From Escherichia phage BAU.Micro_ELP-22, in sequence record OR699282.2: a DNA stretch of 64,000 nucleotides; one strand, 5' to 3'. Made by a program: the position numbers and the translations under genes. This document shows positions 1,963-39,995 of the stretch, piece by piece (positions within the stretch are counted from its first letter, which is position 1; each line of letters opens with the position of its first letter). The notes beneath the pieces were generated by a model. The model was not told the DNA's origin. It saw only the letters and a list, made by a program, of their open reading frames with translations, and ran no database searches.

Positions 1963-2298
<336 letters not shown>

Positions 2299-2299
2299 A

Positions 2300-2482
2300 A
2301 TGACACACGAAGAATGGATGTCCAAACAGCATAAAGAACATGACTGCTTTGGGAATGGCATTCGTCAGGTACATTATGATATATTAAGAGATGAAAATCT
2401 TTTCAGGTCATATGTTTTGGATACCAGAAAACCCTGGTTTATATGCGAACTGGCATTTAGAAAGTCAAATAATCAAAACTAA
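2300..2482 (+). CDS. MTHEEW-family small protein (paralog)
   Basis: N-terminus MTHEEWM, C-term WFICELAFRK. Confidence 0.55.
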   Translation: MTHEEWMSKQHKEHDCFGNGIRQVHYDILRDENLFRSYVLDTRKPWFICELAFRKSNNQN

Positions 2483-2498
2483 ACAAGGAATACAAAAA

Positions 2499-2717
2499 AT
2501 GGAAACAACTTTATTAGAAGTTATTCAATCATTAAAACCTGAAGATGAGGTTCAAGTACTACTACATGGTTATCGTGTAAAAGGTACTGTGGTTTTAGTC
2601 AATGATACAACATTGGTTATTACAGAAACAAACCCATATGATAGTAATCAACTTGCCAATATCCATATCGATATCACTGGAATTATTGGTGTCGGTGTAT
2701 CTAAAACACTTGCATAA
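2499..2717 (+). CDS. hypothetical small protein
   Basis: ATG 9 nt after CAAGGA; track ORF 2391..2717 trimmed. Confidence 0.4.
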   Translation: METTLLEVIQSLKPEDEVQVLLHGYRVKGTVVLVNDTTLVITETNPYDSNQLANIHIDITGIIGVGVSKTLA

Positions 2718-2770
2718 ATCATTAATTCATTATATAATGATTATCACTGGTTCTAGATGAGGATAATATT

Positions 2771-3043
2771 ATGCATTTTGAAAAATTCAACGTAAATCGT
2801 AACACACGCATTGAAGTTCTTTATGAAACTCAAGACACCATTAGTATTCGTACAAGTAGTGGGGATGTATATCATGACTGTACGATTGGCTGGGAACAGG
2901 GAAGAACGCGTAGTGCAGTATTTGATAATTATCGCTTTTATCAAGGAGACACTACGATTTGGCCTGAATACGTAGAAGATATTGCGTTTGAAGATGAACA
3001 TAAAGATGAATTTATCAAATTTAATCCTCAAACTGAATCATAA
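2771..3043 (+). CDS. hypothetical protein
   Basis: 90-codon ORF with GAGGAT SD. Confidence 0.5.
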   Translation: MHFEKFNVNRNTRIEVLYETQDTISIRTSSGDVYHDCTIGWEQGRTRSAVFDNYRFYQGDTTIWPEYVEDIAFEDEHKDEFIKFNPQTES

Positions 3044-3060
3044 ATAATGGGACATCACAT

Positions 3061-3176
<116 letters not shown>

Positions 3177-3180
3177 AAAT

Positions 3181-3282
<102 letters not shown>

Positions 3283-3287
3283 AAACC

Positions 3288-3448
3288 ATGACGCATGAAG
3301 AATGGATGAATGACATTAATTTTAGATATTCGGGTATCGGTAAATGGCTAAAGTATCATTGGGAATTCATTTCAGAGCCACATATGTATGATAAACTTAT
3401 CAACGATCCAGCATATGAAATGTACTTAATTGAACTACTGGTACGAAT

Positions 3449-3452
<4 letters not shown>
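3288..3452 (+). CDS. MTHEEW-family small protein (paralog)
   Basis: 54 codons starting MTHEEWM, directly after tRNA-like element. Confidence 0.5.
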
Positions 3453-3614
<162 letters not shown>

Positions 3615-3624
3615 AAAAAAAAGA

Positions 3625-4033
<409 letters not shown>

Positions 4034-4037
<4 letters not shown>

Positions 4038-4061
4038 CTAAATAATTCAGTACTGTATAAT
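4034..4061 (+). promoter_or_regulatory. sigma70-like early promoter
   Basis: TTGACTAAATAATTCAGTACTGTATAAT immediately upstream of tRNA-Gly. Confidence 0.6.
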
Positions 4062-4063
4062 GC

Positions 4064-4147
<84 letters not shown>

Positions 4148-4161
4148 TTAATAATTCAAAG

Positions 4162-4344
4162 GTGAATATGATGCTATCACACAAAACAGCAACTGTTGAA
4201 AATATTGAATCATTATCTGCACAAGAATTGGTTGACAAAATTAAAGAAGTATGTGATAATAATGGCATTGATATGAATGATACATTTATTAGTGTAGGTT
4301 ATGGTGATTTAGAAATTCAATCTAAAACACTATATTATACTTGA
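4162..4344 (+). CDS. hypothetical small protein
   Basis: 60-codon ORF with AAAGGTGA SD. Confidence 0.45.
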   Translation: MNMMLSHKTATVENIESLSAQELVDKIKEVCDNNGIDMNDTFISVGYGDLEIQSKTLYYT

Positions 4345-4400
4345 CTAAATAGTTCAGTACCGAAGGAGATTAATATGTTTAAAGATGAACGTCCAGATTT

Positions 4401-4441
<41 letters not shown>

Positions 4442-4449
4442 GAATTCCA

Positions 4450-4795
4450 CAATCAGACGTATATGGTGTAAGTTACGTCGATGCAATCCAGAACAAGATC
4501 TCTGGTACTCTAGGAAGTGGTGAATGTTAACCTAGACGGGTTTGATAATTGGACGATAGGCAATTATTACTTGACTAGCAGGTTGAAACTAGAGGTGACA
4601 GTCCTTCACCAAACTGGAAAACCGGATGGACTTTTATTTAAAAGGGTAAGGCGTGGAAATATGTTTACAGAAGTTGCTTTTAGTAGCCTGTACGCCCCAC
4701 GTCAAGGTAGCCGAAAGGCAAGTTAAAACGGATGGTTATAAAGCTGAATTAACAGCGGCGTTTAAAAGCGTCACCATCCATTTTTTTTAATTAAA
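4450..4795 (+). ncRNA. candidate structured small RNA(s) in tRNA cluster
   Basis: GC-richer stretch downstream of promoter 4413-4441, ends in hairpin GGATGGT..CACCATCC plus T8; only a weak 69-codon ORF without SD. Confidence 0.3.
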
Positions 4796-4804
4796 GTTGG
4801 TGAT

Positions 4805-5194
<390 letters not shown>

Positions 5195-5210
5195 TATTAA
5201 GTATTGATAT

Positions 5211-5456
<246 letters not shown>

Positions 5457-5461
5457 CTAAA

Positions 5462-5626
<165 letters not shown>

Positions 5627-5650
5627 ACGAAATTACAATAGGAAATTAAA

Positions 5651-5836
5651 ATGCAACTTTTAATTCTTTCAATATTGTATATTATTATAATGGTTCCGAT
5701 ATCAATACGTTTAATTACAGTTGAACGATTTTTATCGAAACATGGAAATAGATCTATGATCTTTGTACCAATCGGGTTGATATTGTTTGGTATATTTTCA
5801 TTTATAATGGGAATTAACGCTACATTCATTTCATAG
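5651..5836 (+). CDS. small hydrophobic membrane protein
   Basis: 61 codons, two hydrophobic segments. Confidence 0.45.
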   Translation: MQLLILSILYIIIMVPISIRLITVERFLSKHGNRSMIFVPIGLILFGIFSFIMGINATFIS

Positions 5837-5845
5837 GAAACAAAT

Positions 5846-6103
<258 letters not shown>

Positions 6104-6111
6104 GAATTTAA

Positions 6112-6513
6112 ATGAAAAAGAATGACTTGATCAAAATGCTTCAAGAGATTGACGGCAATCCAGAGATTGTTATTTGGAATGGATATGTCGATGATTATAT
6201 GAACATCGAAAAAGGCTTGACTAAAATCACTCTAGTCAAAGAAACTGAACAGTTCCTTCTGGAAGCATTAGTGCACGAATGGTGCAAACGTAACAATACA
6301 TTCGACATTCCAGAAGATCAACGAACTAAGATTGCAGAACGTGCTAAAGAACTGCATAAGAAACGCGAATACGATTTCCAGAACCCACATGTTACTGAAG
6401 ACGAATTCAATCACTGGTACGGTAAAAAGAAATTGACAAAGTATGTCCTTTCACCTAAACTACGTGGTAAGACTTCACTTGGTGTATTCAACGCCGCAGA
6501 CTTAAACTACTAG
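6112..6513 (+). CDS. hypothetical protein
   Basis: 133-codon ORF, GC-richer codon usage. Confidence 0.6.
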   Translation: MKKNDLIKMLQEIDGNPEIVIWNGYVDDYMNIEKGLTKITLVKETEQFLLEALVHEWCKRNNTFDIPEDQRTKIAERAKELHKKREYDFQNPHVTEDEFNHWYGKKKLTKYVLSPKLRGKTSLGVFNAADLNY

Positions 6514-6522
6514 CGGGTATTA

Positions 6523-6777
<255 letters not shown>

Positions 6778-6812
6778 CAGGGGAGGTTGTGATTCCCGAT
6801 TCAGTAGCTTAT

Positions 6813-6935
<123 letters not shown>

Positions 6936-6936
6936 T

Positions 6937-7071
<135 letters not shown>

Positions 7072-7073
7072 TA

Positions 7074-7130
<57 letters not shown>

Positions 7131-7215
7131 AGTAAGAGTAAAAATGAAAGTAAGTAAAAAAACTACCAAGCAGCTTGAAGAACTTTGTAGTGCTGCACCT
7201 ATGCCGACTCTTGGC

Positions 7216-7316
<101 letters not shown>

Positions 7317-7328
7317 TATCTTACTTCT

Positions 7329-7407
<79 letters not shown>

Positions 7408-7424
7408 CAAAATAAAGGTACACT

Positions 7425-15499: not shown

Positions 15500-15975
15500 T
15501 GTTAACAATAGTGTTGTTGGTAAGTCCATTTGTGTATTTTGTGCTGTATAATATTTTTAGTAATGCTAATCATTTTAAATATGCACAAACAATTGCAAAA
15601 CATGAAGGATTTTGGAATTTTTTCCCAGCGTTACTATGCTCATATCTATACCATGAACGCTATTTCATTTTTCCTGAATATAAAAATTATGGTTATGATT
15701 CTAAAGTAAATGGTATAATTGAGTACTGTATAAGAAATTATCTTAATAATAATGATAACGTCCAAGTAAGAATAGGAAATGGTAATATATCAAGAATAGT
15801 TTTCATACCTGATATACAAGACCCAATATACTTATATCCATATGATTATAGTATTAGTGTAGGTTGTTCGATACATGGTAGTAAATCTATGTACGATTAC
15901 TTTATCTTACCACCAACACAAATTAAATTAATAGAAAAATATTTGAGGGAAAAGTTTGACAACAAAGATTCTTAG
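15499..15975 (+). CDS. hypothetical membrane-anchored protein
   Basis: 158 codons; hydrophobic N-terminus. Confidence 0.55.
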   Translation: MLTIVLLVSPFVYFVLYNIFSNANHFKYAQTIAKHEGFWNFFPALLCSYLYHERYFIFPEYKNYGYDSKVNGIIEYCIRNYLNNNDNVQVRIGNGNISRIVFIPDIQDPIYLYPYDYSISVGCSIHGSKSMYDYFILPPTQIKLIEKYLREKFDNKDS

Positions 15976-16899: not shown

Positions 16900-17321
16900 G
16901 AGGCTATAATAAGATTTGTATTTTTGTATTTTTAGTTTGTGCATTCAATTCGTTTGGTTACTACTGTACAGAAAATAATATTTCATATGGTTTAAATCCT
17001 TTGTGGTTTACAATTTCCAATGTAGCACAAATTGGTATTGCTCTTATGTCTGCACTTATGTTCTGTCCAATTGTCACTATGGATACTGATCATGAAAGGC
17101 TTGGATTTCTCCGTGATACTGGAGACGAACCTTACAGTAGATTGATTGTGTTGTATCCATTTATTGTTATTTTAGGTACTAACATCCAACTTGGGTCATT
17201 ATCTAATAGTGTTACATCAGCAGCTATTGCTATATTTGCATTCACATTTTTTATGGTACACAAATCAGTACTTAATTGGTATATCACAAAAATGGCAGAA
17301 GAAGGTACTAAAAATACTTGA
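16896..17321 (+). CDS. integral membrane protein
   Basis: 141 codons, multiple hydrophobic segments. Confidence 0.55.
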   Translation: MRGYNKICIFVFLVCAFNSFGYYCTENNISYGLNPLWFTISNVAQIGIALMSALMFCPIVTMDTDHERLGFLRDTGDEPYSRLIVLYPFIVILGTNIQLGSLSNSVTSAAIAIFAFTFFMVHKSVLNWYITKMAEEGTKNT

Positions 17322-17346
17322 CATAATTTAGTATGTTATATATAAT
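17318..17346 (+). promoter_or_regulatory. sigma70-like promoter TTGACA-N17-TATAAT
   Basis: TTGACATAATTTAGTATGTTATATATAAT. Confidence 0.55.
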
Positions 17347-17380: not shown

Positions 17381-17632
17381 ATGAACATCGATAAGGTCAA
17401 AGAACTTAGTGCTGCACTAATTAAGAATGAAGAAGTTTGTGAAGAACTTCGCAGTACTATCAAAGTTGAGTACGCACGACTCCAAGGTATGCTTCAAGAA
17501 TCAGAATGGGTAGTAACTAAATCTATCGAAGCAATCTATAAGGATATCGAATCCCTTTTCAACAAGAAAAGTAAGATTGAATCTGATTCATATAACAAAC
17601 GTAAAGAGTTATCTACTGCACTTGGTATCTAA
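17381..17632 (+). CDS. hypothetical protein
   Basis: 83 codons, AAGGAA SD. Confidence 0.5.
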   Translation: MNIDKVKELSAALIKNEEVCEELRSTIKVEYARLQGMLQESEWVVTKSIEAIYKDIESLFNKKSKIESDSYNKRKELSTALGI

Positions 17633-17706: not shown

Positions 17707-17967
17707 ATGAAATCTATTCTCGTTGCAGTTAACCTGGTTGCTTCCCCATCTTTCAACTTCAAACAAGTTGTTGCTGATAATCTGAAGAAGATCTGTCCAA
17801 ACGCTGAATTAACTTTCTGTGTGTTTGATTCAGAAAAAGTAACTAAAGTTGATCTAAACTATCTTTTGAACGAAGTAAAAAGCGTTTCTGGTGAAAGTAA
17901 CTTAAAAGTTCTTCATGATATTGCAGAAGATTATGATGACACTCTAGTAATTTCGGAGAAATTCTAA
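17707..17967 (+). CDS. hypothetical protein
   Basis: 86 codons, AAAGGAAA SD. Confidence 0.5.
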   Translation: MKSILVAVNLVASPSFNFKQVVADNLKKICPNAELTFCVFDSEKVTKVDLNYLLNEVKSVSGESNLKVLHDIAEDYDDTLVISEKF

Positions 17968-17972
17968 ATCAA

Positions 17973-18392
17973 ATGATTACATTCATTCAGTACTTAATCA
18001 TTAAATTTTTTGGCTATCATACGATTGAAGGCAAAGCTACACTCGCACATAAAATCTTTGTAGCATTATGTACGGGTGATTATGACGTATTGAATAAGTA
18101 CTGTAAATCTAAAGCATGTATTGATATAATGGCACTTCGTATCTATGAGTGCCGTTCCAATAGATACAATTTTTACCAATACAGATTTGATGAAAAAGAA
18201 TTTGATAGCATCAAAATGCTTAAGAATTTATGTAACAATAAAAAGAATATGCATATATCAGAATTTGTTGCTTTGTATTTTTATTTAAAAAGTTCATTGT
18301 ATATGAACACAATGCAAAGATTCGATACTAGAATTAATGTATTCACCGATAAAGAATTTTATATATACGATAAATTCTTAGATAAGGTTTAA
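17973..18392 (+). CDS. hypothetical protein
   Basis: 139-codon ORF. Confidence 0.5.
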   Translation: MITFIQYLIIKFFGYHTIEGKATLAHKIFVALCTGDYDVLNKYCKSKACIDIMALRIYECRSNRYNFYQYRFDEKEFDSIKMLKNLCNNKKNMHISEFVALYFYLKSSLYMNTMQRFDTRINVFTDKEFYIYDKFLDKV

Positions 18393-18393
18393 T

Positions 18394-18891
18394 ATGACAA
18401 CTGTTTATATTGATAAACGATTAAATTTATTGATTACCGATTCTAGAGTTACGTCAACTATACCACGAAACTTATTTGGTTTTTTCCCACTAAGACCAAA
18501 ATATCAATATGGAGTTGTTAATCAAAAAACTTTATATGTACATGACCGTTTATTCAGTGCTAGTGGGGTAGTAAGTGAAATTGATAAAGTACTGGATTGG
18601 TTAATTAATAAAGTACCAGTTATACCTGACAGAAAGTTAAGTTGCCATTGTGTGCTTCTTTCTAAAGATTATGTTATTCATATGATTTTAACTAAAGGAA
18701 AGTTTATTAAAAAACTTGAATATCTACATGAAGACTACACTTTCTTTATGGGAAGTGGTGGAGAATACATGCTAGATGCTGCTATTCATGAAGAACATAC
18801 AACTTTATATGATAAAGTGTTTAGTACTTTCATGGATGTGCACAACCATGATTGTTTCACAGATGATAATATTAATGTATATCGATTTTGA
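18394..18891 (+). CDS. HslV-like Ntn-hydrolase peptidase (proteasome beta-type)
   Basis: N-terminal MTTVYIDKRLNLLITDSRVT parallels HslV Thr nucleophile region; FFMGSGGEYMLDAAI matches the HslV GSGG motif (recalled, not searched). Confidence 0.55.
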   Translation: MTTVYIDKRLNLLITDSRVTSTIPRNLFGFFPLRPKYQYGVVNQKTLYVHDRLFSASGVVSEIDKVLDWLINKVPVIPDRKLSCHCVLLSKDYVIHMILTKGKFIKKLEYLHEDYTFFMGSGGEYMLDAAIHEEHTTLYDKVFSTFMDVHNHDCFTDDNINVYRF

Positions 18892-18912: not shown

Positions 18913-19878
18913 GTGAAAAAGCTTGATTTAAATACAATTGCCGAAGAAGTTCTGGATGAATGTTTTGCTAATGAAGAAGTCAACACACTAGAAGCCTTAG
19001 ATTTCGTTGAAGATAAAGATGAAAATGAAGGTAAAGTACAAAGCAGTTTCAAATATAATATTACACTTAAGCGACCACCAAATGTTTCCAATGAAGATCT
19101 AATTCGTGATATTCAAGCTGGTATCAATGTAAAGAAAAACACTGAACTGTTAGTTCGTTACAATTATGGACTGATTATTGATGTAGCAAGTAAATGTACT
19201 TGTTATATCCCATTTGAAGATAAGATTTCATATGGTGTTGAGGGGTTCATGAGAGCACTAAAAACCTTTGATCTTAATAAGAATGTTAAGTTCATTACCT
19301 ATGCTTCTTCTAGTATTTACATGACAGTCTATAACGAAAGTTCTGACGCTAACTATATGGTACACTTCCCACGTTATATGAGTGTTCATAAGATCAAAGT
19401 AAAAAGATTCTGTCAGGAATATATGCGTAAACATGGTGTTCGCCCAACTCCTGAAATAATCTCAGAGGGTACTGGGATTGAGATTCAGCATGTTAATAAT
19501 TGTTTGTTATTTCAAAGCGAATACACTTCGCTGGATGCACCATTAGACGGTGTTACAGATGGTACATTAGGTGACATTATTCATTCACCTGCTTCTGATT
19601 TTAACCTCAATGTTGATAGTATCCGTGCACCTTTACGTTATGCTATCAATGAACTGACTAACGAATTGAGTACTAAAGAACGTGAGATTATCCAGCGTGT
19701 TCATGGTCTAGGTGAATATGAACCTGAAACGCTTCGTGAGATTGCTGATAATGGTTTTGTTGATGATAATGGAAAATATGTTAAATCCCGTTCATCAATA
19801 CACCGAAAGTACAGTGAAGCTATGCAAAAGCTTAAGAAGTTAGTACTTGCAAAAGGGTACGAATACGAAGATTTCTAA
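18913..19878 (+). CDS. sigma-70 family RNA polymerase sigma factor
   Basis: GTG start after TAGGAG; regions 2 and 4 recognisable: NVKFITYASSSIYMTV, HFPRYM, GVRPTPEIISE, LSTKEREIIQRVHGL..TLREIA. Confidence 0.7.
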   Translation: MKKLDLNTIAEEVLDECFANEEVNTLEALDFVEDKDENEGKVQSSFKYNITLKRPPNVSNEDLIRDIQAGINVKKNTELLVRYNYGLIIDVASKCTCYIPFEDKISYGVEGFMRALKTFDLNKNVKFITYASSSIYMTVYNESSDANYMVHFPRYMSVHKIKVKRFCQEYMRKHGVRPTPEIISEGTGIEIQHVNNCLLFQSEYTSLDAPLDGVTDGTLGDIIHSPASDFNLNVDSIRAPLRYAINELTNELSTKEREIIQRVHGLGEYEPETLREIADNGFVDDNGKYVKSRSSIHRKYSEAMQKLKKLVLAKGYEYEDF

Positions 19879-19884
19879 AGAACA

Positions 19885-19911
19885 AGGGTTGGCTTATGCC
19901 AACCTTTTTTT
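19885..19911 (+). terminator. rho-independent terminator
   Basis: GGTTGGC-TTAT-GCCAACC followed by TTTTTTT. Confidence 0.8.
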
Positions 19912-20966: not shown

Positions 20967-21755
20967 ATGAGCACTATAGATGAACTGATTCGACGGAATT
21001 CAAAATATTACCAACCATCAGAAATTGTAGGTAACATTACCAAATCAGAGTTTGGTCCAAATACTCGAAAACTCATTCATGTAATGTCACGTGATGGCTT
21101 TAAATGTGATTGTTGTGGTGAATCAAATGTAGTATTCACTTTACACAAGCACAGTACTAAAGAACGTTATAAATTCAGACCTTATGTACTTAAAGGGAAA
21201 CGCCTTGTACGCATGACGTTAGACCATAATGTACTGGACTGTCTTCAGGGCGGTAATGATAAAGAGAACATGACTGCACTGTGTGAAGATTGTAACGCAT
21301 TACGCCAGCATAAGTTTGCTGAATACAGTGAGTTTAAACACTGGTATCATAACGCGGATCGTTCAATCGAGCCTGACGTTAACTACTGCTTCATTGAGTA
21401 CATTAAGAATGCCAAAGATACATACATTCTTAAATCAATGTCACCTATTACCGTGTTTCCTGAGAACCTATTCACTACATTAAAGAATAGTTTTATTGTA
21501 GGTGATATTGATGCATTCAAGTATTTTGACAAAGGTGCAAAACATTTTGAAATTCAATGTCTTAGTACTGCACTATGTGAACTCATTAAAATTTACATAA
21601 AAGAGTATTTGGGTATTGACAATGTACGTGTACCAGAGTATACTTTTTCTATTGAATTCGATTGTGAATCAATCAAAGAGTTTGGAATTCTTTTCAATAA
21701 ACAAATAGAACTTGCAATTCAAAACGAAATCAAGTACTATACTACTAACATTTAA
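20967..21755 (+). CDS. HNH endonuclease-like protein
   Basis: CDCCGES zinc-ribbon Cys plus LDHNVLDCLQGGNDKENMTALCEDCNALRQH (HNH core). Confidence 0.6.
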   Translation: MSTIDELIRRNSKYYQPSEIVGNITKSEFGPNTRKLIHVMSRDGFKCDCCGESNVVFTLHKHSTKERYKFRPYVLKGKRLVRMTLDHNVLDCLQGGNDKENMTALCEDCNALRQHKFAEYSEFKHWYHNADRSIEPDVNYCFIEYIKNAKDTYILKSMSPITVFPENLFTTLKNSFIVGDIDAFKYFDKGAKHFEIQCLSTALCELIKIYIKEYLGIDNVRVPEYTFSIEFDCESIKEFGILFNKQIELAIQNEIKYYTTNI

Positions 21756-33841: not shown

Positions 33842-33878
33842 TAAAAGGGTTGACTTCGGTCAGCCTTTTTTGTTATGA
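33842..33878 (+). promoter_or_regulatory. terminator-promoter stem-loop cassette (PeSL-like)
   Basis: AAAAGGGTTGAC-TTCG-GTCAGCC + T6 + TATGAT. Confidence 0.6.
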
Positions 33879-33907
33879 TGTTGGTATTAACTACAGAGGA
33901 TAAAGTA

Positions 33908-34549
33908 ATGACTAAGCAAGACATATTCAAAACTTTAATTGACATTTTGCGTCCATCAAAAACTCGTTGTGCGATGGAGTTTGATATTCCTTATGCTGAA
34001 CGCGTAATCTTTCCACAAGTTAAAGCTGCTGGACTTACTTTGCTTGGAATGGGGATGTACTCTGTAGTAGTTGAACATAAAAACTATCCTGGACGTGCAT
34101 TTAAAGTAACCACTTCACGCTGGGATGGTTTTCGTGCTTATGCAAAGTACTGCATTGAAAACGCAGGAACCAAGTTTCTTCCAGTGATCTACAGTGCCAA
34201 CGAACAAGGAAACTTTGGATGGTATGAGATGGACAAGTACTATCCTATAATTAAACAAAAAAATAATTATGATGACTTTGTTAGTACTAAAATTGGAGAT
34301 TTATATTCTTATGCACATGCTGGTCAGTACGCTACTTCAGTGAATGATATGCGTGGTAATTCTGAAGAGATTGCTATTGCAACGGTCGCTGCTAACATCA
34401 TGAAAGAGTTTCACGGGCGTTTTGTACCAGACATTCATTCCAGTAATGTCATGATGGATAAAGATGGCAATGTATTCATTACTGATCCTCTTTCGTGTGA
34501 TGTACGTAGAGAAATACCAGTTACTGAAGAAGATCCAGTTTTTTATTGA
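33908..34549 (+). CDS. hypothetical protein with kinase/phosphotransferase-like motif
   Basis: ATG after AGAGGA; DIHSSNVMMDKDGNVFITDP resembles APH/protein-kinase catalytic loop (weak). Confidence 0.55.
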   Translation: MTKQDIFKTLIDILRPSKTRCAMEFDIPYAERVIFPQVKAAGLTLLGMGMYSVVVEHKNYPGRAFKVTTSRWDGFRAYAKYCIENAGTKFLPVIYSANEQGNFGWYEMDKYYPIIKQKNNYDDFVSTKIGDLYSYAHAGQYATSVNDMRGNSEEIAIATVAANIMKEFHGRFVPDIHSSNVMMDKDGNVFITDPLSCDVRREIPVTEEDPVFY

Positions 34550-39761: not shown

Positions 39762-39995
39762 ATGAAACTATCTTTTATACGATTGGCTGAATTCTTTGGT
39801 ACTGATGTAATTACTCTACAACAAATCGCAGATAATACATCATTAACTACACAAGAAGTACTTGATTTAGATGTAATTCAGTGCGATAATACTTCCATCG
39901 ATTACAAAGAAGGTCTTGTCGAAAAAGATAAGATTCAAGCTAAAATTAATGGTGCTGGACGGGTTCAGTACTGGAAAGGAGTTTTAAGTAAATGA
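39762..39995 (+). CDS. hypothetical protein
   Basis: 77 codons, AGAGGC SD. Confidence 0.5.
   Translation: MKLSFIRLAEFFGTDVITLQQIADNTSLTTQEVLDLDVIQCDNTSIDYKEGLVEKDKIQAKINGAGRVQYWKGVLSK

Follow-up and report, generated by a model that had tools for sequence, protein, structure and literature searches.

The closest described relatives of the gene considered here are HslV (ClpQ; MEROPS T1B; PDB 1M4Y, 1G4A, and 1G3I) and the proteasome homologues found in phages. A survey by Fuchs, Alva, and Lupas in 2021 catalogued 22 new proteasome homologues (PMC8665760). Among these, PPH is a protein of about 140 amino acids from tailed phages and their hosts that lacks the helix H2 and was described as "the first true viral member"; two others, AAH and CPH, are likewise known from phages (PMC8665760). 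An HslV without HslU has been noted in print for the jumbo phage pSal-SNUABM-04 (PMC7823757). This study has focused on a gene in a 64,000-nucleotide stretch of DNA from Escherichia phage BAU.Micro_ELP-22 (record OR699282.2), referred to below as the window. The gene encodes a 165-amino-acid protein that an earlier note, made from the sequence alone, had taken for an HslV-like peptidase without an adjacent HslU partner. Judged by sequence profiles and predicted structures, its assignment to the proteasome-beta/HslV fold is secure, and its family is a small and divergent clade with hardly any members outside the RaK2-like jumbo phages. By a modest degree, we favor the view that the protein is an early-expressed, free-standing N-terminal-threonine peptidase. 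Such an enzyme would act independently of an HslU-type unfoldase, would owe its specificity to a beta-hairpin, and would cut host or phage targets during takeover.

The open reading frame (ORF) is real and under strong purifying selection. Its exact translation has 165 residues, starts MTTVYIDKRLNLLITDSRVT, and includes FFMGSGGEYMLDAAI, which confirms the reading frame, the Met-Thr start, and the GSGG-like motif given in the earlier note. An AAGG ribosome-binding site (18384-18387) lies ahead of the ATG at 18394. An in-frame TAG (18379-18381) is found four codons 5' of this ATG with no start codon in between; a propeptide is therefore impossible, and Thr2 directly follows Met1. Compared with the 75%-identical orthologue of phage fEgEco12 (g518), the ratio of nonsynonymous to synonymous substitution rates (dN/dS) is 0.08, with synonymous sites near saturation. 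Further orthologues are 121Q gp166, phAPEC6 gp067c, and RaK2 ORF243. Over 4 kb, the region shares 99.5% identity with Escherichia phage JP4; its identity to 121Q, PBECO4, phAPEC6, and others is 98.5-99.3%. By sequence identity, the source is an Asteriusvirus-type member of the RaK2-like jumbo myovirus group (121Q/PBECO4), whose genomes are ~350 kb.

Scans of the window protein against Pfam, NCBIfam, and PADLOC gave zero matches (none in Pfam or NCBIfam even at E 10), and phmmer/hmmsearch searches of PDB sequences gave no match to HslV. The best PDB sequence match, 5jqk ("Peptidase, putative"; E 0.013 over 43 residues, similar to NQKTLYVHDR), was set aside as a short chance match. P0030, a protein of 1360 amino acids in which 8 repeats weakly resemble residues 37-62, was likewise dismissed as an unrelated repeat protein. 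In PHROGs, the window protein belongs to phrog_24804, a family of unknown function (E 2e-103), and weakly matches phrog_1040, the "peptidase HslV family" (E 9e-6). When the 28 family members were scanned, 19 matched the hidden Markov model (HMM) of phrog_1040 (best E 6e-14), and PF00227 (Proteasome) was the sole Pfam family matched by more than one member (3 of 28, best E 1.3e-3). The window protein falls short of the curated Pfam and NCBIfam thresholds for the proteasome superfamily, so its homology rests on profile-profile and structure comparison.

Both comparisons point to the same fold. With hhalign, the family was aligned over its full length to an HslV profile (88% probability, E 3e-6) and to a phrog_1040 profile of seven sequences (90%, E 1.6e-6). 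The HslV profile comprised the Escherichia coli sequence, other gammaproteobacterial sequences, and four Firmicute sequences. The Firmicute HslVs were taken from host contamination in the phage collection; a protein search with E. coli HslV gave only sequences at least 86% identical. Profiles were needed here, as hhalign against single sequences was uninformative (11.5% for HslV, 1.6% for phrog_1040). A first AlphaFold model, built from 16 sequences, had a predicted local distance difference test score (pLDDT) of 82.8. A second, built from 28 sequences, reached a pLDDT of 94.9 (94.0-94.9 over all five models) and a predicted template modelling score of 0.85. The two have the same topology, the four-layer alpha-beta-beta-alpha N-terminal nucleophile fold of proteasome beta subunits. 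When the first model was searched against the PDB with Foldseek, every top match was an HslV or a 20S beta subunit (probability 1.0, E 3.9e-6). The predicted fold is secure because the AlphaFold models, Foldseek, hhalign, and the member-wide PHROG and Pfam scans agree. The HMM search and structure prediction that the earlier note had proposed thus bear out its HslV-like fold, through the phrog_1040 matches and the HslV-type structures. The lack of any proteasome-fold match, which it had named as grounds for giving up the idea, was contradicted by Foldseek and hhalign.

The likeness to HslV extends from the fold to the predicted active site. HslV has 176 amino acids, both proteins start MTT without a propeptide, and Asp17, Gly-Ser124-Gly, and the oxyanion glycine of HslV align with residues of the peptidase, although identity between the two is only ~15-18%. 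Conservation was assessed over the 28 homologues, which reach down to 19% identity and have a mean column identity of 39%. M1, T2, T3, D16, T20, G58, G120, S121, G122, and D153 are invariant in all 28, and T15 and K45 are conserved in at least 90% of them (Table 1). The N-terminal catalytic Thr of the earlier note is upheld to this extent, since the residue it expected to vary if the idea were wrong is the same in every homologue. Thr20 is equivalent to Thr21 in the hhalign alignment. Lys45 is the single conserved lysine in the right region and stands 13 residues before Gly58, compared with 14 in the proteasome. Its equivalence to the catalytic Lys33 is probable: MAFFT aligns it exactly with HslV Lys33, and hhalign places it 2 residues off in all modes tried. 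Near the C-terminus, hhalign pairs T156 with the Thr that is invariant in the YTN motif of HslV, and the Asp153/Thr156 pair resembles proteasome Asp166/Ser169, an equivalence suggested by the motif only.

The predicted nucleophile would be freed by removal of Met1. Methionine aminopeptidase removes Met before a small second residue, and E. coli HslV begins fMet-Thr-Thr without a propeptide. By analogy, removal of Met1 by the same enzyme, exposing the Thr, is plausible for the phage protein. In none of the 28 members is Thr1 blocked by an N-terminal extension. This absence also bears on the suggestion that the protein is a catalytically inactive proteasome-fold scaffold, decoy, or inhibitor, for instance one that interferes with host HslVU. 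Precedents can be cited for it: the homologue BPH is inert in vitro despite a full active site (PMC5777263), and proteasome alpha subunits are a textbook case of the fold in non-catalytic roles. However, Met-Thr-Thr, D16, G58, GSG, and D153 are strictly invariant in 28 sequences whose mean column identity is 39%, which is the pattern expected of a working active site. An inactive protein is accordingly very improbable.

Table 1. Features of the peptidase gene and its predicted operon (positions in the window).
Feature	Position	Strand	Basis
Sigma-70 promoter with perfect consensus (TTGACA-N17-TATAAT), where the transcription unit probably begins	17318..17346	+	Consensus match
Three small co-oriented upstream genes; same predicted operon	17381-17632, 17707-17967, 17973-18392	+	ORF list
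Coding sequence of the 165-aa proteasome/HslV-fold peptidase homologue	18394..18891	+	phrog_24804
Thr2-Thr3 codons; predicted N-terminal nucleophile and second Thr	18397..18402	+	hhalign; HslV Thr1-Thr2
Asp16 codon; Asp17 of HslV/proteasome	18439..18441	+	Aligns with Asp of HslV GDGQ
Long beta-hairpin, residues 18-41 (strands 18-27/31-41), near the active site; includes Thr20	18445..18516	+	Both models
Lys45 codon; probable equivalent of catalytic Lys33	18526..18528	+	Conservation, MAFFT
Gly58 codon; predicted oxyanion-hole glycine (Gly47 in the proteasome, Gly48 in HslV)	18565..18567	+	Invariant, aligned
Residues 60-83; helix H1 (60-72) and short loop (73-83) before the next strand; H2 missing	18571..18642	+	Both models
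Gly120-Ser121-Gly122; HslV Gly-Ser124-Gly (proteasome Ser129)	18751..18759	+	Invariant; HslV and phrog_1040 alignments
Asp153-x-x-Thr156; C-terminal D-x-x-[TS] motif	18850..18861	+	D153 invariant; 156 is T or S
Sigma-70-family RNA polymerase sigma factor gene	18913..19878	+	21 nt downstream of peptidase
Intrinsic-terminator-like hairpin, 10-bp stem then T run; end of the predicted operon	19884..19907	+	Sequence match

The peptidase departs from HslV at the surface on which HslU docks. H1 and H2 are present at the corresponding point in HslV and in nearly all proteasome homologues, and PPH and RPC also lack H2 (PMC8665760). In HslV, the pore loop also lies at this point. In the peptidase, H2 is missing from both predicted structures, which have a single helix between strands S5 and S6, and HslV residues ~70-90, the H2 segment, face gaps in the hhalign alignment. 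The pocket of HslV that receives the C-terminal tail of HslU is made up of Phe54, Phe57, Ala79/Lys80 (on helix H2), and Gln114 (PMC6429459). In an alignment of ~16% identity (hhalign), Phe54 becomes Asp64 and Phe57 becomes Leu67 in the peptidase; the docking pocket of HslV sensu stricto is thus not conserved in this alignment. The basic pore residues of HslV, Arg86/Arg89/Lys90 (PMC5777263), also have no counterpart, and, again unlike HslV, no hslU was found with the gene.

These departures bear on the earlier note's proposal that the protein hijacks the host unfoldase. The peptidase would then form HslV-like rings that dock on host HslU (or another AAA+ unfoldase of the host, such as ClpX) and redirect ATP-dependent unfolding to phage-chosen substrates. 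In HslV proper, two hexameric rings stack into a dodecamer that encloses the active sites. HslV is indeed the best structural match in Foldseek, and HslV alone is nearly inactive (PMC6429459). Moreover, the known hosts, Escherichia, Klebsiella, Salmonella, and Erwinia, are enterobacteria that encode HslU, and tblastn counts gave no sign of an HslU encoded by these phages themselves. The predicted docking surface, however, is altered: the segment that holds Ala79/Lys80 is deleted with H2 in two AlphaFold models, and Phe54/Phe57 are replaced. The overall identity to HslV is also low, and ClpX-ClpP docking uses IGF loops in a different architecture (textbook). BPH, which is derived from HslV, no longer has the residues of the HslU interface and fails to bind HslU (PMC5777263), so HslU independence does evolve. 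On alignment and model, docking on the host unfoldase finds no support and appears unlikely.

The other departure lies in the S3 hairpin. The segment after strand S2 is ~11 residues longer than its HslV equivalent (hhalign), which extends the hairpin by 11 residues beside the active site. The S3/S4 insertion site is where connectase, an archaeal proteasome homologue that acts as a monomeric, sequence-specific protein ligase (PDB 6ZVZ, 8JTU), bears its specificity lid (PMC8665760). The peptidase might by comparison be a sequence-specific processing enzyme or transpeptidase that works in a connectase-like manner, as a monomer or small oligomer, on one defined target, such as a regulatory protein of the phage or the host, rather than a degradative protease of the compartmentalised type. 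The shared insertion site fits this proposal, and the loss of H2 takes away the element that precedes the pore loop of the ring. Non-ring assemblies are expected in divergent homologues by Fuchs et al. (PMC8665760), and the order of the gene with a sigma factor is kept down to 29% identity. The defining features of connectase are nevertheless the loss of H1 and H2 and a two-helix lid between S3 and S4 (PMC8665760), whereas in the peptidase H1 is retained and the insertion forms a beta-hairpin. In the structure search, connectase is also outscored by HslV and 20S beta subunits. Finally, no sigma factor is near the homologue of Klebsiella phage 05F01, and the gene directly upstream of the peptidase is not conserved, so that synteny may just mirror a generally conserved gene order. 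A connectase-like role is thus doubtful. Two cellular relatives differ in other respects. BPH and Anbu are bacterial proteasome homologues for which no ATPase partner is known; in contrast to the peptidase, each has H2 as well as H1, and they come from stress-linked genes of cells rather than early genes of phages. The long acidic pore loop of BPH and the long C-terminal helix of Anbu are not features of the peptidase.

The search for a partner ATPase gave a mixed answer to the claim that no AAA+ unfoldase lies nearby. In agreement with it, phmmer with E. coli HslU found nothing among all 211 window ORFs of at least 60 aa. An AAA-family ATPase is encoded, however, 23 kb downstream of the peptidase (41485-42255, + strand). 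This 256-aa protein is the sole Walker-A protein in the window, matches PF00004 with 24.5 bits (cutoff 21.2), and falls in phrog_1250, annotated as of unknown function. It is the homologue of T4 NrdC.10 and occurs in 1309 phage records, mostly T4-like phages without the peptidase. Its weak PDB sequence matches (mS29, RFC, and Cdc6) are not unfoldases. This widespread protein without HslU similarity was therefore rejected as a dedicated partner. The ATPase gene stands directly downstream of a gene for a 474-aa HNH/homing endonuclease (39992-41416, + strand). It covers positions 77-326 of the 327-position PHROG profile. Because the alignment with the Hallingskeid homologue begins at residue 1, the gene is probably intact rather than split by the endonuclease.

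Outside the window, five metagenomic contigs carry the orthologue with no ATPase domain less than 10 kb away. A tblastn search of all phages with HslU returned 164 records, of which just 4 were labelled Escherichia, compared with 32 Escherichia RaK2-like carriers of the peptidase. In a sampled listing, two of the Escherichia records that matched HslU were a contamination contig and a Seoulvirus. These record counts suggest that RaK2-like genomes lack an HslU-like gene. The adjacent or genome-encoded HslU that marks HslV sensu stricto was thus found neither in the 64-kb window nor in the 10 kb around the orthologue on the contigs, nor is it indicated by the counts. Contamination was also seen for HslV itself. 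Records OR845448, OR851086, OR849164, OR846616, OR844988, MT835528, AGRM01000004, and AFYI01000005 carry a canonical bacterial hslV, 52-98% identical to that of E. coli. Several of these phage-labelled records also carry hslU, and they appear to be host-genome contigs, so that a plain tblastn search falsely suggests a "phage HslV."

The nearest phage relatives of the peptidase belong to phrog_1040. Its proteins (among them SPN3US gp1, phiEaH2 gp185, and pSal-SNUABM-04 ORF1) are ~155-170 aa long and occur in 62 phage records. It is our own inference that phrog_1040 is probably PPH. The published description of PPH as a compact group-I homologue of tailed phages without H2 or propeptide (PMC8665760) also fits the peptidase. 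The latter, with its 165 aa, is longer than the ~140 aa of PPH, and its cluster accessions exclude the published representatives (WP_042125023.1 for PPH). The proteins of phrog_1040 share with the peptidase a phage-encoded and compact form, the MTT start without propeptide, a D-S motif after S2, the GSG and C-terminal D-x-x-T motifs, and the loss of most of H2. The two families nonetheless form separate clusters that exhaustive HMMER searches did not bridge. They also differ in the place of their insertion, which is the S3 hairpin in the peptidase and after the Lys strand in phrog_1040. The seven-sequence phrog_1040 profile was matched to HslV with 97.6% probability (E 3e-12). It is closer to HslV than the peptidase family is, so the peptidase family is a separate and more divergent clade. 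By the profile comparisons, the family appears roughly equidistant from HslV and phrog_1040.

The two families also differ in their company. Chimallin-type phages with phrog_1040 (Machina-like, SPAsTU) encode an HslU-like ATPase, whereas RaK2-like phages have none by record counts. In SPAsTU (MH221129; 26559-28316 and 136551-137030) and pEa_SNUABM_6 (MW812343; 1-471 and 107136-108863), the phrog_1040 and HslU-like ATPase genes are ~100 kb apart. RAY-like phages encode an HslU-like ATPase as well (RAY, NC_041973, 86352-87896), and the HslU-like gp116 of RAY has been reported to localise to the phage nucleus. Judging from such related phages, the statement that the Machinavirus pSal-SNUABM-04 carries HslV without HslU (PMC7823757) may be wrong for that group. 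More distant relatives are found in BFVD, a collection of predicted viral protein structures. About 20 more viral proteins there have the fold, many from unrelated jumbo phages; the matches include Noxifer, PhiPA3 gp331, RisingSun, RP12, and USC-1.

The genomic setting suggests when the peptidase would be made. The gene is one of many small genes that follow one another on the + strand, within the predicted operon of Table 1. Perfect TTGACA-N17-TATAAT sites number 2 in the 64 kb (at 15956 and 17318), compared with 0.09 expected. Sites with at most one mismatch number 12, compared with 2.2 expected, and 11 of these are on the + strand within ~4-36 kb (4232-35656). On sequence grounds, this cluster marks a putative early region transcribed by the host RNA polymerase. 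In phage CBB, the homologous sigma-factor region has been considered an early, host-takeover region (PMC5259590). Early expression of the peptidase is predicted on this basis. Of the three upstream genes, the last (17973-18392) ends 1 nt ahead of the peptidase start codon. It was ruled out as an obligate companion, as no homologue of it stands beside the orthologues in RaK2, Munch, or the metagenomic contigs. Of the three products, that of 17381-17632 (83 aa) is the only one found again in Munch and in metagenomic relatives. Other genes of the same strand lie farther off. The product of 33875-34549 is a T7 gp0.7-like protein kinase (phrog_15752, "protein kinase; inhibitor of host transcription," E 2.5e-97), another gene of host-takeover type in the array. 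An HNH endonuclease gene (20967-21755, + strand) is found just downstream of the sigma-factor operon, and, taken with the one at 39992-41416, points to the presence of several homing endonucleases here. Seven tRNA genes (Gly-tcc twice, Ser-tga, Ser-gct, Met, Asn, and Thr) lie at 1985-7408 on the + strand.

The order of peptidase and sigma factor is kept in fEgEco12, RaK2, Munch, and the metagenomic contigs, down to 29% identity. In relatives, the two genes are sometimes separated by an annotated terminator or by one to two small ORFs, and the order is not kept in 05F01. Because the two genes stay together over the range from Asteriusvirus to Munch-like phages (29% identity), a functional tie to the co-transcribed sigma factor can be imagined. 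The peptidase would either process the phage sigma factor or remove host sigma-70, an anti-sigma factor, or a defence protein. Such removal could let the phage sigma factor seize the host RNA polymerase, and the S3 hairpin could give the specificity. We regard this tie as improbable.

A role in the virion was also considered, in which the protein would serve as a head-maturation (prohead) protease or another protease of virion assembly. Large phages need a prohead protease, and in Gungnir39, a small Erwinia phage, the head-tail adaptor and head-closure genes flank a phrog_1040 gene. RaK2-like phages, however, encode another protein of this kind, a T4 gp21-type "prohead core scaffold and protease," which the virion mass-spectrometry table of phAPEC6 lists as gp227c. 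The phAPEC6 peptidase orthologue, gp067c, is absent from that table. The peptidase gene is found among small genes behind sigma-70-type promoters and beside a sigma factor, outside the structural module. A virion-assembly role is therefore extremely improbable.

The free-standing peptidase that we favor would operate as follows. The host RNA polymerase would transcribe the gene early from 17318-17346, in one unit with the three small genes and the sigma factor. The host methionine aminopeptidase would strip Met1 and leave the Thr nucleophile free, with no propeptide cleavage needed. Thr1, Asp16, Lys45, the oxyanion Gly58, and Ser121 would then hydrolyse peptide bonds in the manner of HslV and 20S beta subunits, whatever oligomeric state the protein may adopt. 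No HslU-type unfoldase would be involved, given that H2 is gone and that the searches turned up no HslU-like gene in these phages. The beta-hairpin of residues 18-41 by the active site would probably set the choice of substrate, and the likely role is the cutting of particular host or phage proteins or peptides in host takeover.

Several observations weigh against this view. BPH is HslU-independent and has a complete active site but is inert in all standard assays (PMC5777263), so an intact catalytic set is no guarantee of measurable general protease activity. The phrog_1040 clade is also without most of H2 yet co-occurs with phage HslU-like ATPases, so the loss of H2 alone cannot rule out an ATPase partner. 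The window does encode an AAA-family ATPase, the phrog_1250 protein of 41485-42255. The apparent lack of HslU-like genes in RaK2-like genomes comes from record counts rather than an exhaustive scan of single genomes. The assignment of Lys45 depends on the alignment method, and the promoters and terminators are known as consensus matches only.

The family is small wherever it was searched for. Among 5.8 billion proteins, its members fall into 15 clusters at a 90% identity cutoff, and an exhaustive HMMER scan of 1.84 billion cluster representatives found 18 family representatives only. A repeat search with a more diverse family profile gave nothing beyond the known family. Matches to the window protein occur in 51 records of the phage collection, all of tailed phages (32 from Escherichia, 10 Klebsiella, 8 Salmonella, and 1 Erwinia), with one copy per genome except for one record with two matching places. 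Among the matches listed, all are RaK2-like jumbo phages of 310-386 kb save one 22-kb Klebsiella phage record. Identity to the window protein is ~46% in RaK2/K64-1 and ~29% in Munch-like phages. A divergent homologue is encoded at 4001-4546 of Klebsiella phage 05F01 (LC483177), a non-jumbo member of the Stephanstirmvirinae with a genome of 147 kb. It is 32% identical to the metagenomic member P0029 and gave no match in PHROGs. Its gene lies among small early-type genes and adjoins a superinfection-exclusion gene. A partial copy of 85 aa (P0173), deposited on a 512-bp contig as Actinomadura adrarensis, is almost certainly coliphage DNA contamination of that assembly.

The peptidase is labelled hypothetical in all sources but two GenBank records, "ATP-dependent protease subunit HslV" for fEgEco12 and "ATP-dependent protease" for Turkey3. 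The HslV-annotated gene is not discussed in the fEgEco12 paper. Orphan phage proteasome homologues have themselves been published (PMC8665760, PMC7823757). The find is less novel than the earlier note implied, as this kind of protein was already in print and two records were already so named.

To conclude, this work provides a fold and a predicted active site for a gene called "hypothetical protein" in 48 of 50 RaK2-like genomes, as well as for its homologue in 05F01. The practical gain is modest, as the kind of protein had already been described. The family represents a separate and very divergent clade of phage proteasome homologues that, unlike the SPN3US/Machina type, appears to have no phage HslU-like ATPase with it. 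We know of no phage proteasome homologue with a known substrate. Small, predicted to be early, and carried by E. coli phages, this peptidase would make a handy system for studying the role of a viral stand-alone threonine protease.

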